A stretch of 34,515 nucleotides of DNA from a virus (IMGVR_UViG_2667527976_000007), one strand, 5' to 3'; counted from the stretch's first letter, positions 23,511-30,148 are shown. Notes: generated by a model not told the origin, from the sequence alone. Translations and numbers: made by a program.

Positions 23511-23761
23511 TGAAAGAATACCGCTATTCCGGCCCGGCCAGCGGCGTCACGCTGTCGGACGGAACCGAAATCCTGCTCTGGCCGGGGAAGACGGTTTCCC
23601 TGCCGGAGGAGCATGACTACGTGAAGGTACTGGTGGCGCTGAAACATCTGACGCCGGTACCTGAAGAGACTAAACCCGCCGGCACACCGGCTGTGCAGTC
23701 ACCAAAGCGCAGAAGCAGCAGTGACAGCGAAGTGAAAACGGAGGACACCCATGGCAGCTAA
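23507..23761 (+). CDS. hypothetical protein (84 aa) preceding tail sheath
   Basis: Small ORF coupled on both sides. Confidence 0.4.
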   Translation: MMKEYRYSGPASGVTLSDGTEILLWPGKTVSLPEEHDYVKVLVALKHLTPVPEETKPAGTPAVQSPKRRSSSDSEVKTEDTHGS

Positions 23762-25178
23762 CTATCTGCATGGTCCCGAAACCATTGAGGTGGAAAACGG
23801 TGCCCGCCCGGTTAAAACGGTGAAATCTGCCGTTATTGGCCTGATTGGTACCGCCCCGATGGGGGATGTCAATACGCTGGTACAGTGCCTGTCTGAGAAA
23901 GACGCAGCGGCATTTGGCAGCCAGTTCACCGGCTTTACCATTCCGCAGGCGCTGGATGCGATTTATGACCATGGTGCAGGTACCGTTCTGGTCATTAACG
24001 TCCTCGACCCGGCGAAACATAAAACGGCGATCGAGGATGAGGTGGTTACCTTTGACAAATCGACAGGGCAGGCCAGACTGGCGCATCCGGTTGTCGCTAA
24101 TGTGGTGGTGAAAAACAGTGAAGGCAGCACCTCCCACACGGCGAACACGGACTACCGTGTTGATGCGCAGGCGGGTGTGCTCACGAACCTGGGCAAGGCT
24201 ATTGAGGCCGGTGGCAGCGTGAAGGTGAGCTATGAGTACGCGGACCCGTCGAAGGTGACTGCGGCGGACATCATCGGCGGGGTGAACAGCGCCGGAAACC
24301 GAACCGGCATGAAGCTGCTTAACGACAGCTTCAACCTGTACGGCTATTTCGCCAAAATTCTGATTGCGCCGGTGTTCTGCACCCAGAAGAGTGTCGCAGT
24401 TGAGCTTATCGCCATGGCAGAGAAGCTGGGCGCGGTAACCTACATTGATGCGCCTGTCGGTACCACCTTTGCACAGGCTCTGGCAGGTCGTGGCCCGGAA
24501 GGCACCATCAACTTCAATACCAGCTCCGACCGCGTCCGTCTGTGCTATCCGCATGTGAAGGTATATGACCCGGTGACAAACACAGAGCGTCTGGAGCCGC
24601 TCAGCCAGCGTGCAGCAGGTCTGCGTGCCAGAGTCGATCTGGACAAGGGCTACTGGTGGTCATCCTCCAATCAGGAGATTCTGGGGATCACCGGCGTGGA
24701 GCGCCAGCTGTCCGCGATGATTGATGACCCGCAGAGTGAGGTGAACCTGCTTAACGAACAGGGGATCACCACGGTATTCAGCAGTTACGGCAGCGGCCTT
24801 CGTCTGTGGGGTAACCGGACGGCAGCATGGCCAACGGTCACCCATATGCGTAACTTTGAGAACGTTCGCCGCACCGGTGATGTGATCAACGAGTCCATTC
24901 GTTATTTCAGCCAGCAGTACATCGACATGCCGATTACTCAGGCGCTGATTGATGCACTGACGGAGTCGGTCAACGCCTACGGTCGCAAAATGACTGGTGA
25001 TGGTGCGGTACTGGGCTTCCGTTGCTGGTTTGATCCGGCCCGCAATCCGGAGACGGAGCTGGCCGCCGGGCACCTGTTGCTGAGCTACAAATATACGCCA
25101 CCACCGCCGCTGGAGCGACTGACGTTTGAGACTGAGATCACCTCGGAATACCTGTTAACCCTGAAAGGGGGCAACTGA
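23751..25178 (+). CDS. contractile tail sheath protein (Mu L-like)
   Basis: 475 aa; followed by the tube gene with ATGA coupling. Confidence 0.8.
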   Translation: MAANYLHGPETIEVENGARPVKTVKSAVIGLIGTAPMGDVNTLVQCLSEKDAAAFGSQFTGFTIPQALDAIYDHGAGTVLVINVLDPAKHKTAIEDEVVTFDKSTGQARLAHPVVANVVVKNSEGSTSHTANTDYRVDAQAGVLTNLGKAIEAGGSVKVSYEYADPSKVTAADIIGGVNSAGNRTGMKLLNDSFNLYGYFAKILIAPVFCTQKSVAVELIAMAEKLGAVTYIDAPVGTTFAQALAGRGPEGTINFNTSSDRVRLCYPHVKVYDPVTNTERLEPLSQRAAGLRARVDLDKGYWWSSSNQEILGITGVERQLSAMIDDPQSEVNLLNEQGITTVFSSYGSGLRLWGNRTAAWPTVTHMRNFENVRRTGDVINESIRYFSQQYIDMPITQALIDALTESVNAYGRKMTGDGAVLGFRCWFDPARNPETELAAGHLLLSYKYTPPPPLERLTFETEITSEYLLTLKGGN

Positions 25179-25699
25179 TGTCAAAGATTGAGATAAACCG
25201 CATCACGAATGCCAACATCTATCTGGATGGTACTAACCTGCTGGGACGGGCTGAGGAAGTTAAACTCCCCGATGTCTCCATGATTATGCAGGAACACAAG
25301 GCGCTGGGGATGGTGGGTAAGGTGGAACTCCCGGCTGGTTTTGACAAACTGGAAGGCGAAATCAAATGGAACAGCTTTTACCGCGATGCGATGCTGTCTG
25401 CCGCGAACCCGTACAGGTCGCTGGCACTGCAGTGTCGTTCCAGCGTCCAGCGCTACAGCTCGCAGGGGCTGATTGACGAAATCCCGCTGGTCACCTTCCT
25501 GACGATTATGTTCAAGAAGAACCCGCTGGGGACGTTCAAACAGCACGAGAACGCCGAGTTCTCCAGTAGCTTCACCTGCACGTATATCAGACAGGTACTG
25601 GATGGTGAAGAGCTGCTGCAACTGGACTATCTGGCCAACATCTTCCGGGTCGGCGGTGTTGATCAACTGACTGACTACCGTATCAATATCGGGGGCTGA
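25178..25699 (+). CDS. tail tube protein (Mu M-like)
   Basis: 173 aa immediately after the sheath gene. Confidence 0.7.
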   Translation: MSKIEINRITNANIYLDGTNLLGRAEEVKLPDVSMIMQEHKALGMVGKVELPAGFDKLEGEIKWNSFYRDAMLSAANPYRSLALQCRSSVQRYSSQGLIDEIPLVTFLTIMFKKNPLGTFKQHENAEFSSSFTCTYIRQVLDGEELLQLDYLANIFRVGGVDQLTDYRINIGG

Positions 25700-25701
25700 C
25701 G

Positions 25702-25983
25702 GTGAGTGTTGAACTGACGGATAAAGGAGGACGATGTGCGGCACTGGGCATGTCAAATGGTACGTGGTTTACCCTCCTTGATATTCCGGGGGTGGAAACC
25801 CTTTTTAATACCCGTAAAACCAATGACCCGATTGACTGCACACGTTCAAAGGCCCGCAAACTGGCGGATTTGATTGAAGCATGGGAGCCTCCCGACCACT
25901 GGTTCTCCGGCACCGGCAAATCTGAGGGAAAGACGCTTCTCATCGCTTTCCTGCGTAACTGCAAGGGGTTTCGCACTTGCTGA
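25702..25983 (+). CDS. hypothetical small protein (93 aa)
   Basis: ORF with a probable non-ATG start directly after the tube gene; coding status uncertain. Confidence 0.3.
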   Translation: MSVELTDKGGRCAALGMSNGTWFTLLDIPGVETLFNTRKTNDPIDCTRSKARKLADLIEAWEPPDHWFSGTGKSEGKTLLIAFLRNCKGFRTC

Positions 25984-25989
25984 CATCAC

Positions 25990-26011
25990 AGGGGCTCCGG
26001 CCCCTTCTTCT
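25990..26011 (+). terminator. putative intrinsic terminator after the tube region
   Basis: AGGGGC (25990-25995) / GCCCCT (26000-26005) stem with TCCG loop, followed by TCTTCTT. Confidence 0.4.
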
Positions 26012-26080
26012 TAATCTCCTTTAATATCCGTCACGCGCTTCTCCCGACATACTGCCCTGAACTTACACAGGAGCACAATC

Positions 26081-26416
26081 ATGTCACAGACCCCATCCGA
26101 TACTTTTAAATTGTCTTATCCCTTCACCACTGCTGCAGGCACCAGAATTGAGCAGGTTGAACTGAAACGCCTGACGGTAAAAGACCTGAAGCAGGTGCGC
26201 AAAATCAGCAAAAACCCGGCAGACTGGGACGAACCGCTGATTGCCCGCAGTACTGGTCTTCTCCCGGAAGATCTCGACAATATGGATCTGGCTGATTACC
26301 TGCAGTTACAGAAACGATTTCAGCTCATCACGGGGATGGGTGAGAGCAACCAGGGCGCTGACGCAGGCGCAGGGGCTGCTGGCGAGATGGTTCCGGTTTC
26401 AGCCGGGGGAGATTGA
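26081..26416 (+). CDS. tail assembly chaperone (P2 gpE-like)
   Basis: 111 aa; between tube and tape-measure genes; GGAG RBS upstream. Confidence 0.6.
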   Translation: MSQTPSDTFKLSYPFTTAAGTRIEQVELKRLTVKDLKQVRKISKNPADWDEPLIARSTGLLPEDLDNMDLADYLQLQKRFQLITGMGESNQGADAGAGAAGEMVPVSAGGD

Positions 26417-26498
26417 TGCCCTCGATACTGACGATCTGGAGATGTGGCTGGAGCAGGCTGAAGAGCAAATAAAAAGCGAGTACGGCGACAAATCATAG
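26241..26498 (+). CDS. overlapping +1-frame ORF: candidate frameshift extension of the tail assembly chaperone
   Basis: Open frame overlapping the 3' half of the chaperone gene and extending 82 nt past its stop; no ATG or RBS of its own (track start is TTG); a G5 run at 26405-26409 lies just before the chaperone stop. Confidence 0.45.
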   Translation: MPAVLVFSRKISTIWIWLITCSYRNDFSSSRGWVRATRALTQAQGLLARWFRFQPGEIDALDTDDLEMWLEQAEEQIKSEYGDKS

Positions 26499-26573
26499 TA
26501 CAGACAGCCGCCAGTAGCGGCTGTTCTGCGTTATCCCCTCACGTCTTTTCACCTTCCCCGGAGGTTAACCACT

Positions 26574-29264
26574 ATGTCGGGACAGTTTTCAGTCGGCGTT
26601 GTTATCGGCGGGATGATTGGTAGCACATTCCGTTCTGCAATGAGCGGTACCCGCCGTGCGCTTGATTCCCTGAGCGATACCTCACGCCGCCTGCAGGAAC
26701 GTCAGAACGCTTTAACCCGTGCAACAGAACGTTATGGTCAACTGGGTTCTTCCCGGATGCAGCATCTCAACAGCGAGCTGCTGCGGGTAAGCCGCACCAT
26801 GGAGCAAATTGAGCGCCAGCAGCGCCGTCTGTCAGCGGCATCCGCTACCAGTGATGAGCTGAAAGCTAACCGCATGGCGCTGTATGGTCAGGGGATTGAA
26901 GCGTATGGCATGGCACAGACTGTTTATCATACGGTTTCCCCTGCCGTTCAGCAGTCCATGTCTTTTCAGGACAAAATGATTGATATGTCGATCACCGCAA
27001 AATATGACAATAAAACGCGGGATGGACTTGCCGGACAGATAAAAGGCTGGGCGCTTAAATACAATCAGTATCAGGATGAGCTGCAGGAGGCGGTGGGTTC
27101 ACTCATCAGCGACAATATTGATAATGTGTCAGATATCGGTTTTCTGATGCCGGATATTGCCCGCGCGGCAACGGCAACACGCACGTCTGCTCAGGACTGG
27201 GCAAAAGTGGCCGCAGTCTGGCAAAACTCCCTGAAAGGTGCGGCCAGAGATTTTGGTGCCGTTCAGAATATTATGGCTTATGCCGGTGACCAGGGGTCAT
27301 TTGAAATCCCGGATCAGGTCAAGTGGATGCAGTCCCTGGCCCCAATGATGGCGGGTATTGCCAGTGGAAAAGAGGCTGTTGCTGAAATCGGGGCCAGTCT
27401 CCAGATAGCAAAAATCGGTGCAGGTTCCACCGACGAAGCAGCCAATAATTTTAAAAACTTTCTTACCAAAATTTTTGCCCGCGATACTCAGAAACAGTTT
27501 GCTGATCTGGGTATTGATTTGCAGGGATCTATTGCGAGTTATAAAGCTGCGGGGATCTCTCCGATTGAAGGGATGTTGAGTGTTATAGAACGTTACCTCA
27601 ATGCCAAAAGCCCCGAAGCGCTGGCCGGCTTCAAATCAGCCATGAAAATAAAGAATGATACGGCAAGAGATGAGGCACTTCAGGCTCTGGCGAAAAACTT
27701 TGGTCTGGGCGATATGTTCGCGGATATGCAGGTCATGGCATTTATCCGCCCGATGCTGGCCAACATGGACAGATATCGAGAGATCCGTGCCGGTGCTCTC
27801 AGGGCTGCGGATAACGATTTGCTTGCCAGTGCTTATGATCAGCGGCTGAAATCTCCCCTTGAAGCCACTAAAACACTTATGGTCAGCAGTCGCGATCTGG
27901 CAATTACGCTGGGCGATCAATTAGCTCCATCTTTTATTTCTTTGACTCAGGAACTGCTTCCACTCATTCAGGGGGCAAAACACTGGGTAGCGACTCACCC
28001 GCAATTTGTCAGTGGGGCTTTTAAGCTCATCAGTGCGCTCCTTGCGATTAAGATAGCGACTGTTGGTCTCAAACTGGGGCTGAATCTCCTTATTTCCCCC
28101 TTTGTAAGTGTCTGGAAAAATGCTGTTTTACTTCGGGCCAACTGGCTTCGTCTGTCGCTCGCACTGGGGCAAGGCGGTAAGCTCCGCTGGCTGGTGACCG
28201 GATTTAGCGCCGTCGCCAGAGGAGCCAGAACACTGAGTGGCGTGCTCTCCGAGGGGCTGGTTCGCGGAATTATGCTCGCCGGACGTGCTGTTCTCTGGAT
28301 TGGACGTGCGCTGATGATGAATCCCATCGGTCTCGTTATCACCGCTGTCGCGGCAGCAGCTTACCTTATCTACCGCAACTGGGGGGCAGTCAGTGGCTGG
28401 TTTAAACAGCGCTGGGCAGACATTCAGGAAGCCTTTAACGGCGGCATTGTGGGAATTGGTAAGTTACTGATTAACTGGTCGCCGGCAGGCCTGCTCTATA
28501 AAGCCTTTGCAGCTGCGCTGAAATATCTTGGTGTTGATCTGCCGGCAAAGTTTACCGACTTCGGTGGCCATCTTGTCGATGGTCTGATTAACGGTATCAA
28601 AAACAAATGGGAGTCGCTCAAATCCAGTGTAACCGGAATGGGTGACAGCATCAGTGGCTGGTTCAGCGAAAAGCTGGGCATTCATTCGCCGAGCCGCGTG
28701 TTTATGGGCTTTGGTGACAATATCGCGCAGGGGGCCGCCATTGGCCTGCAGCGGACCACTCCGCTTGCAGCTCTGGCCGGGCAGCGAATGGCCAGTGAAC
28801 TGCTCCCCAGAATGCCCGTGAGCATCCAGGGGCCAGAAATACGGGATAACACTTCAGGTGTTCGCTTCAGTATGCCGTTGCCCGATATCAATGGGTTTAT
28901 GTCGTCTGCTAAAAATGCGATCGGAGCCGTAATCAATAGTTTGTCTTCCATGCCCGCTATTCCGCTCTCCACCCGGGCATCGATTTTACCAGGGCAACGT
29001 CTGGCAAATGAGATGACACCGGATGTTCCCCGTATCCCCTCGCCTGAAATCCTGGCTGCCGGATATTCAGGCCGTGGTGCAGCTGCAACCAGCGGTGGAA
29101 CGTCTGGTGGTATCCAGGTCAGCTTTAATCCTCAGTTTTTCCTCAATGGCAGGGAAACCACAGCGCCTGCAGGACTGACTGGTGCCCTGAATATGAGTCT
29201 GCATGAGCTGGAAAAAATGCTGGAGCGTCTGCTGGCTCAGAAACAACGTAAGGAGTACCGCTGA
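26574..29264 (+). CDS. tail tape measure protein
   Basis: 896 aa, helical N-terminal half, hydrophobic central segments, Gly-rich C-terminal region; follows the chaperone pair. Confidence 0.8.
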   Translation: MSGQFSVGVVIGGMIGSTFRSAMSGTRRALDSLSDTSRRLQERQNALTRATERYGQLGSSRMQHLNSELLRVSRTMEQIERQQRRLSAASATSDELKANRMALYGQGIEAYGMAQTVYHTVSPAVQQSMSFQDKMIDMSITAKYDNKTRDGLAGQIKGWALKYNQYQDELQEAVGSLISDNIDNVSDIGFLMPDIARAATATRTSAQDWAKVAAVWQNSLKGAARDFGAVQNIMAYAGDQGSFEIPDQVKWMQSLAPMMAGIASGKEAVAEIGASLQIAKIGAGSTDEAANNFKNFLTKIFARDTQKQFADLGIDLQGSIASYKAAGISPIEGMLSVIERYLNAKSPEALAGFKSAMKIKNDTARDEALQALAKNFGLGDMFADMQVMAFIRPMLANMDRYREIRAGALRAADNDLLASAYDQRLKSPLEATKTLMVSSRDLAITLGDQLAPSFISLTQELLPLIQGAKHWVATHPQFVSGAFKLISALLAIKIATVGLKLGLNLLISPFVSVWKNAVLLRANWLRLSLALGQGGKLRWLVTGFSAVARGARTLSGVLSEGLVRGIMLAGRAVLWIGRALMMNPIGLVITAVAAAAYLIYRNWGAVSGWFKQRWADIQEAFNGGIVGIGKLLINWSPAGLLYKAFAAALKYLGVDLPAKFTDFGGHLVDGLINGIKNKWESLKSSVTGMGDSISGWFSEKLGIHSPSRVFMGFGDNIAQGAAIGLQRTTPLAALAGQRMASELLPRMPVSIQGPEIRDNTSGVRFSMPLPDINGFMSSAKNAIGAVINSLSSMPAIPLSTRASILPGQRLANEMTPDVPRIPSPEILAAGYSGRGAAATSGGTSGGIQVSFNPQFFLNGRETTAPAGLTGALNMSLHELEKMLERLLAQKQRKEYR

Positions 29265-30148
29265 TGTTTGCCGTACTGGGTGATATTGAGTTTGAGCTGA
29301 TTACCTACTGGGACGGCTTCGAGGCCACGTTCGGCGTCGATTATGCGGAGCATGCCCGCATCGGGGGTAAGCCTGGCCTGCAGTTCGTCGGCGACAGGCT
29401 GGACGAAATCCAGATAACTCTGGTTTTCCATCAGCATTATTGTGTACCCGATGTGGAGCTGGCGAGACTGCGAACAGCCATGAAAGCCCATCAGGCACTG
29501 GCGCTGGTCTTCGGCAACGGTGACTATCGCGGCTGGTTCGTGATTACCGATGTGACTGCAACCAGCGAGCAGACTGACAGTACCGGCAACGTGCTGGCTG
29601 TCAGTGCCACCGTGTCTCTCCGGGAATACACCGGTGACCCGAAAAATCCTCTGCAACCACCGGCAATACGCACGAAGCTCCCGGGTGTCGGGGCGGTCTC
29701 CGGTGCCATACCTTCACCTTCAGGGGTGGCGCAGTTCATCCGCAACGGCGTCAACTATGCGAAACAGGCGCAGTCTGTACTCCAGACCACTATCAGCGCC
29801 GTTCGGGTGACACAGAAAATGAAGGATAACCCCGTTGTCGCACTGACCCGTGTGCCGGGGCTGATGAGCGGACTGGGTAATATCTCCGGGGCTCTGGGGA
29901 AAAGTGTTCCGGCGTTTAACGCACTCTCTGAATCCATGCCCGATGCCATCAGTCTGGCCAGAACAGCCAGCGAAGCAGCCACGTATGTACAGCAGGCACA
30001 GTCTGCGCTGAGTGGTGTGGACAAAAGAAATATTGCAGGTGCTCTGGATACCGTTTCCGGGCAGCTTAACGCCGCCGGCACAGCATTCAACCGCATGTCT
30101 CCGGGATTAAGTGCAATGGCCGCCAGAATACTGACGAGGAGTGTGTGA
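29264..30148 (+). CDS. tail protein (Mu N / P2 gpU-like)
   Basis: 294 aa directly after the tape measure, coupled; assigned by position and general resemblance. Confidence 0.5.
   Translation: MFAVLGDIEFELITYWDGFEATFGVDYAEHARIGGKPGLQFVGDRLDEIQITLVFHQHYCVPDVELARLRTAMKAHQALALVFGNGDYRGWFVITDVTATSEQTDSTGNVLAVSATVSLREYTGDPKNPLQPPAIRTKLPGVGAVSGAIPSPSGVAQFIRNGVNYAKQAQSVLQTTISAVRVTQKMKDNPVVALTRVPGLMSGLGNISGALGKSVPAFNALSESMPDAISLARTASEAATYVQQAQSALSGVDKRNIAGALDTVSGQLNAAGTAFNRMSPGLSAMAARILTRSV

Follow-up and report, generated by a model that had tools for sequence, protein, structure and literature searches.

The stretch of DNA analysed here (the window; 34,515 nucleotides, IMGVR_UViG_2667527976_000007) represents a nearly whole BcepMu-like prophage of Escherichia coli. 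The prophage has a Mu-type head and transposition module together with a contractile tail of the P2 type, and Escherichia phage PhiKM, classified in Bcepmuvirus, is 99.6% identical to the window across the chaperone region. Of 5426 complete E. coli genomes, 641 carry this region, with the arrangement of gene E and its second frame E' intact in nearly all of them. The genes and sequence elements of the tail region are the following:

23751-25178: sheath gene
25178-25699, + strand: tail tube gene (Phage_tube FII, PF04985), upstream of the chaperone gene
25702-25983: 93-aa ORF with no known function
26081-26416, + strand: gene E, tail assembly chaperone, frame A; 111 aa, ATG start, TGA at 26414-26416
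26315-26322, + strand: conserved block CGAUUUCA, within CGA UUU CAG in frame A, holding UUU_C at 26318-26321
26322-26498, + strand: E' segment, frame B (+1); 58 codons plus TAG, SSSRGWVRATRALTQAQGLLARWFRFQPGEIDALDTDDLEMWLEQAEEQIKSEYGDKS, P2 GpE-like domain
26405-26409, + strand: G5 run, encoding Pro-Gly-Glu of E' in frame B; not conserved
26574-29264, + strand: tape measure protein gene (PF10145), starting 75 nt past the E' stop
29264-30148: gpU gene

The product of E belongs to the Phage_TAC_7 family (PF10109; E 3.5e-22, 78.7 bits against a cut-off of 25), and the domain spans residues 8-81. Residues 81-111, located past the candidate shift site described below, are of low complexity and variable in length, the E proteins of relatives comprising 102-113 aa. 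A sequence-only reading of the window had identified a tail assembly chaperone gene between the tube and tape measure genes; both the family assignment and the flanking genes confirm this placement, which is the one expected for tail chaperone pairs.

The 93-aa ORF between the tube and chaperone genes gives a match to phrog_1239 (unknown function, E 4.6e-48) and a weak one to DUF7739. Conservation of the ORF extends to PhiKM, KP12 and E. coli prophages; in P2, this place is without such an ORF. NCBIfam yielded no matches for E, E' or the 93-aa ORF. Between this ORF and the chaperone gene, and hence inside the expected single tail operon, lies a terminator-like hairpin (AGGGGC UCCG GCCCCU followed by UCUUCUU, 25990-26015), which could either attenuate transcription of E, the tape measure gene and further downstream genes or stabilise the upstream mRNA. 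Another hairpin, GC-rich and with a stem of 7 bp (CAGCCGC CAGUA GCGGCUG, 26506-26524), is found after the E' stop and before the ribosome-binding site of the tape measure gene. Its sequence ACAGCCGCC recurs at the same place in relatives; the terminator scan left it unflagged because of its weak T-tail.

Two sets of loci were compared with the window. The close set was compiled from 80 related loci of viral contigs and annotated records, which gave 56 distinct sequences with at least 60% protein identity. For the broad set, one genome per species was scanned with the E' peptide alignment, resulting in 63 loci, in 62 of which the E domain could be placed. As the broad scan was seeded by the E' motif, the sample is biased to the LLA[RK]WF[RH]F clade and stands for one clade, though a broad one. 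Its 61 loci with E' in the +1 frame span Enterobacterales, Burkholderiales, Rhodocyclales, Methylotenera, Chromobacterium, Thiofaba and a few MAGs, with G+C contents of 42-69%.

The second reading frame across gene E

Frame B, the +1 frame relative to E, is open from 26241 to the TAG at 26496-26498; it has the last 176 nt of E in common with frame A and continues for 82 nt past the E stop. A second ORF of this kind, overlapping the 3' half of the chaperone gene and devoid of an ATG of its own, had been noticed in the sequence-only reading, and all of these observations hold. The ORF caller starts the frame at a TTG, and some gene callers at GTG 26340. An 85-codon open +1 frame would arise by chance with a probability of (61/64)^85, i.e. 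~0.02, which is mildly unlikely; the reality of frame B is therefore deduced from purifying selection in this frame rather than from its open length.

This selection is apparent in the distribution of variable sites among the 56 distinct relatives. Up to ~26320, variation is highest at the third codon position of frame A, and from 26321 at that of frame B. From 26366 on, virtually all variation falls on third positions of frame B, the position-3 entropy in this part being ~0.02 for frame A versus 0.5 for frame B. The frame-B peptide ...AQGLLARWFRFQP(G/S)E(I/L)... is kept even where E is only 64-70% identical, and the most conserved part of E', LLARWFRFQP, is encoded at 26376-26405, upstream of the G5 run. 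The E' peptide is also conserved over the 61 species-level loci. Comparison with homologous chaperone pairs, the check suggested along with the first proposal, thus finds the downstream frame conserved in the 56 close relatives as well as in the 61 broad-set loci.

On its own, frame B of the window matches the P2 GpE family (PF06528, Phage_P2_GpE) weakly, with E 0.0016-0.004 and 16-18 bits, under the cut-off of 23. The predicted fusion, in which 26081-26320 is joined to 26322-26498, would comprise 138 aa; residues 1-80 of this E+E' are those of E, and a GpE-like C-terminal extension of 58 residues follows. Thirty predicted fusions from relatives align well, with F80 invariant, and PF10109 is matched by all 30 and PF06528 by 19 of them (E <= 0.01, best 1.5e-7). 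The fusion profile aligns with P2 gpE+E' over both parts of the protein (hhalign probability 96%, E 3.8e-9, 118 columns), and the F-x-(W/F)-x-P-x-E motif follows the junction at 23 residues here and at 25 in P2. The fusion had no sequence matches in the PDB.

A candidate +1 shift site at UUU_C

The block CGATTTCA (26315-26322) is invariant in 56 of 56 close relatives, two third positions of frame A included, while neighbouring third positions vary. In the broad set, E' lies in the +1 frame in 61 of the 62 loci with a placeable E domain; in the remaining one (L103), an upstream indel fuses the two frames. Each of the 61 loci harbors exactly one in-frame TTT_C in the region where both frames are open, and it always occurs at the same aligned Phe. 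The site reads TTT followed by C in all 61 cases, with 13 different preceding and 6 different following codons (CAG, CGC, CAA, CAU, CUG or CGU after UUU). As a control, the other Phe codons of these E genes were counted and comprise 45 TTT versus 51 TTC (47% TTT).

The position of a shift is further limited by stop codons. In L137, L140 and L147, frame B becomes open only 8 nt ahead of TTT, and in L136 frame A stops at the second codon past the site (UUU CGC UGA). Stops in both frames therefore confine the shift to within ~15 nt of TTT, provided that all relatives share one site, and UUU_C is the only conserved element inside this permitted stretch. Residues of frame B are conserved straight after the junction (at least 70% of the 30 fusions have a Trp 4-6 positions downstream, and at least 90% have L93), so frame B is constrained from the first post-site residues, even in lineages where frame A has already ended. 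An E' in the +1 frame and an in-frame TTT_C at the aligned Phe are likewise present in Burkholderia phage BcepMu (gp41/gp42, UCC UUU CGC), Ralstonia phage YO107_2, Pseudomonas phages Komp_PAO1_1 and Bise, and the Salmonella prophage bearing the STM4212/STM4213 tail genes.

Comparison of the sequences establishes the frames, the homology, the selection on frame B from ~26321, the invariance of UUU_C and the shift window of ~15 nt. We consider it highly probable that a programmed +1 frameshift occurs at UUU_C (26318-26321) and gives rise to the 138-aa E+E'. The resulting junction would read ...LQLQKRF/SSSRGWVR... (the slash marking the shift) and would be contained in the predicted GluC peptide DLDNMDLADYLQLQKRFSSSRGWVRATRALTQAQGLLARWFRFQPGE.

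A shift at or beside the same place could also proceed by -2 instead of +1, with one residue added as in Mu. The +1 and -2 frames are identical and thus not separable by sequence alone, and the chaperone of Mu, a member of the same Pfam family, uses -2: the shift of Mu gp41/Mu_56 at CGG_GGG_CGA is verified (Mu GenBank record, citing Xu, Hendrix and Duda 2004, PMID 15469818). However, re-pairing by -2 from UUU lands on GAU in the window and on varied triplets in relatives, and no run near UUU_C permits re-pairing two bases back. For this reason -2 is disfavoured, and +1 re-pairing requires precisely the one element that is conserved, UUU with a C after it. We regard a -2 shift at this site as improbable.

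The locus shares several features with that of Mu and differs from it at the site itself. Mu gp41 is named in the Pfam family description ('E, or 41 or 14'), both extensions are read in the +1/-2 frame, a rare CGA adjoins the slippery triplet, and the phage of the window is likewise Mu-like and transposable. In Mu, a G5 run allows re-pairing two bases back, whereas UUU_C fits only +1, and the Mu extension, compared by eye, has no evident similarity to the GpE-like E'. A conserved G-run followed by a rare codon, as in Mu, was not found among the 56 relatives, in which the G5 run of the window is unconserved and a G4 run is variable. This G4 run (26372-26375) was considered as a shift site and rejected, since it varies among the 56 relatives at a third position of frame B.

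Unlikely alternatives: separate initiation, the G5 run and absence of recoding

Less probable again than a -2 shift is translation of E' alone from an internal start, e.g. GTG 26340, which would yield a protein of ~52 aa with no frameshift. Gene callers do yield such ORFs, PHROG 8286 and P0117 both starting at GTG 26340, and PGAP reports a stand-alone 'GpE family phage tail protein' in one genome with a disrupted E. GTG 26340 is, however, not conserved, 35 of the 56 relatives having C at 26341. Possible frame-B starts are scattered: no ATG is available in 21 of 61 loci, none of ATG, GTG or TTG in five, and no start codon of this frame is kept in position across the 61 loci. Conservation of frame B moreover starts upstream of 26340, right after UUU_C, and in P2 E' is annotated solely within the frameshift fusion gpE+E'. 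Among 1.84 billion representative proteins, E' was encountered in only 30 short stand-alone ORF calls and in no genuine in-frame fusion; P0129, retrieved by the E' protein search, is an indel artefact.

A shift at the G5 run (26405-26409), either +1 (GGG to GGG) or -2 as in Mu, has very little likelihood. The run had been put forward in the sequence-only reading, and it is indeed present two codons ahead of the E stop (GCC GGG GGA GAU UGA in frame A); the -2 site of Mu is likewise a G-run followed by CGA (CGG GGG CGA). In addition, 138-aa in-frame variants in public assemblies are joined exactly at the run (P0004 and P0009-P0011; ...VSAGEIDAL...), and L079 has one base fewer at the run, by which frame A is fused to E'. 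The simplest reading of these variants is, however, that they are homopolymer indels, i.e. sequencing errors or mutations. In 32 of the 56 distinct relatives, a frame-A TAG occurs at the equivalent of 26393-26395, where frame B reads UUU AGA for UUC CGG; it places the G-run downstream of the stop and thus outside E in these relatives, and accounts for the length of 104 aa of many database homologues. The run is also absent from L080 and L082, which carry CCG AGT GAG in its place, and from distant relatives. Selection on frame B begins ~85 nt upstream of it, and a shift at the run would give a product without the invariant LLARWFRFQP of the GpE-like domain. The first proposal is thus strongly supported by the comparison as far as a shift into the +1 frame is concerned, and unsupported with respect to the unconserved G5 run as its site. 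The assay region suggested with it (26380-26420) would not cover 26318-26321, the likely site, which is situated ~85 nt 5' of the run.

In L079, L103 and L084 and in P0004, P0009-P0011, P0025, P0059 and P0129, E and E' are brought into one frame by single-base indels. Several are located at the G5 run and others upstream, and many stem from short public assemblies. These fusions represent either homopolymer sequencing errors or defective prophages, and appear as spurious 'full-length' proteins in databases.

Least credible of all is the absence of recoding, with the +1 ORF being either open by chance or a remnant in decay, or its product arising via transcriptional slippage: the locus carries no slippage annotation in the RefSeq (PGAP) and phage GenBank records examined, but frame B is under strong purifying selection across orders of Proteobacteria, the arrangement is intact in nearly all of the 641 E. 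coli genomes with the prophage, and the three-T run is far too short for slippage by RNA polymerase.

Proposed mechanism, known counterparts and annotation

For the +1 shift at UUU_C, it is supposed that most ribosomes would read E (111 aa) through to its TGA, while a minority would shift at the site. The peptidyl-tRNA-Phe in the P site (anticodon GAA) would re-pair from UUU to UUC, one base downstream, swapping a G:U wobble for a G:C pair, and decoding would then resume in frame B at AGC. By analogy with lambda gpG/gpGT and P2 gpE/gpE+E', E and E+E' would coat the tape measure protein, the rarer E+E' would bring in tube subunits, and the E : E+E' ratio would be determined by how efficient the shift is. 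We infer +1 rather than -2, slippage of the tRNA, a low efficiency and any role of the 5' CGA codon.

CGA is a rare Arg codon (3.4% of the Arg codons in the structural genes of this prophage). It precedes UUU in 41 of 61 loci and is limited to enteric relatives and a few betaproteobacteria; as a speculation, it might stimulate the shift from the E site. No conserved RNA structure was found 3' of the site (RNAalifold, 31 diverse sequences, zero pairs), the window's own fold near the site is unremarkable (z = -1.18), and no Shine-Dalgarno-like sequence was seen upstream of it. In the zero frame, the A site mostly holds CAG, by which most Gln residues of the prophage are encoded (158 CAG versus 21 CAA), so there is no obvious slowly decoded codon at this place. 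Furthermore, in-frame UUU_C occurs in 12 further copies in 10 other structural genes of the window. A low efficiency must therefore be assumed for the bare tetranucleotide, in keeping with the small ratios known from this class of genes.

A more far-reaching idea, to which we assign only a small probability, is that of a stimulator-free, context-tuned +1 cassette, in which the E-site codon and the host tRNA set the efficiency and an ancestral P2-type -1 U-run has switched to +1. The cassettes read CGA_UUU_CAG in enterics and UCC/GCC_UUU_CGC in betaproteobacteria. If the context-tuned reading were true, the chaperone ratio and tail assembly would respond to host physiology through the supply of tRNA-Arg ICG/tRNA-Gln. 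In a bolder variant, a second, minor shift at the G5 run would make a third product where E reaches that far.

Judged by these comparisons, the locus very probably represents the E/E+E' frameshift of P2 in a +1 version. The proteins are homologous (PF10109 and PF06528) and match end to end, and in both phages the chaperone is encoded between the tube (FII) and tape measure (T) genes, in P2 within the FETUD tail operon. The product sizes are 91 and 142 aa in P2 and 111 and 138 aa here. The annotated -1 site of P2, GGU UUU UUG (GFL/F), lies within ~4 aligned residues of F80 at the end of the TAC domain, and three relatives (L136, L147 and L150) carry a P2-like U-run, UUU UUU C, at the site. The systems differ in direction (-1 in P2, +1 here) and in the slippery element, a heptanucleotide with tandem slippage (U_UUU_UUG) in P2 versus the tetranucleotide UUU_C here; a -1 heptamer X_XXY_YYZ is absent from the permitted window. 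They differ as well in the length of E past the site, 6 codons in P2 versus ~30 here, which results in a long dual-coding stretch.

Another Phage_TAC_7 relative, in Pasteurella phage AFS-2018a (L091, ~830-845), has its E' in the -1 frame, and the end of its E reads CAA AAG GGA AAG UAA (an A_AAG-type site). The protein family thus comprises members of either shift direction.

Sites of the UUU_Y kind are described from genes unrelated to E. A +1 site of this type is known from argI of E. coli (Fu and Parker 1994, via the review of Atkins et al., PMC5009743), the same kind of site is named as likely for Yersinia YopN-TyeA, and PA-X of influenza A is produced by a +1 shift within UCC_UUU_CGU (Atkins et al., PMC5009743). 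Common to these cases and to the proposed site are an in-frame UUU followed by a pyrimidine, at which tRNA-Phe re-pairs by +1, and the lack of a large RNA structure; in the window, UUU is located at 26318-26320 and C at 26321, with frame B open from 26241 to the stop at 26496-26498. BcepMu and L146 have UCC_UUU_CGC, i.e. the PA-X cassette save for the last base. The A-site codon CGU is, however, rare in the host of PA-X, whereas the A-site codon here is usually the common CAG.

Tail-chaperone shifts of different phages are -1, -2 or +1 (Atkins et al., PMC5009743), the haloarchaeal virus HSTV-2 being a proposed +1 case (PMC5009743), and the PRFect training set contains 350 'forward' (+1) tail-chaperone cases from SEA-PHAGES genomes. 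As +1 tail-chaperone shifts are documented in these other phage groups, the kind of event is already known. Lambda gpG/gpGT and the +1 cases of actinobacteriophages and HSTV-2 resemble the present locus in that two chaperone forms are made in a fixed ratio just upstream of the tape measure gene. Their slippery motifs differ, and the likeness is one of logic rather than of claimed homology. The P2-type E/E' family of Proteobacteria was not found among the described +1 cases, and a full-text literature search yielded no description of this clade or site as +1; an earlier mention, either by Xu et al. 2004 or in the BcepMu paper of Summer et al. 2004, is possible.

The proposed site would be a natural, deeply conserved, minimal bacterial UUU_C +1 site with no obvious stimulator. 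Being homologous in position to the -1 U-run of P2, it is useful for studying the evolution of shift direction and the influence of the 5' codon context. The prophage family is also present in Salmonella, Klebsiella, Pectobacterium, Burkholderia, Ralstonia and Pseudomonas, with E+E' unannotated or mis-annotated; joining the two frames at the in-frame TTT_C where the TAC_7 domain ends would correct the annotation. For tailocin or phage engineering from these modules, both chaperone forms would be needed.

In the RefSeq (PGAP) records examined, only E is called and slippage is unmarked; phages PhiKM and KP12 likewise annotate E alone, and PHROGs keeps the E' fragment as a family without known function. 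The stand-alone GpE call by PGAP concerns E. coli E30 (L004, NZ_CM143888; 1859-1999, corresponding to 26358-26498 of the window), whose E has an internal stop. Since E' is called in this genome only and is unannotated in the intact records examined, its annotation depends on E being broken. The GenBank record of BcepMu (L093, AY539836) places a lambda G/GT-like slippage between gp42 and gp43 (24602-25363), whereas the comparison indicates that the real pair would be gp41 (E) and gp42 (E'), with a putative +1 shift at UCC_UUU_CGC near 24821. BcepMu gp43 fills the gap before the tape measure gene and has no counterpart in the window.
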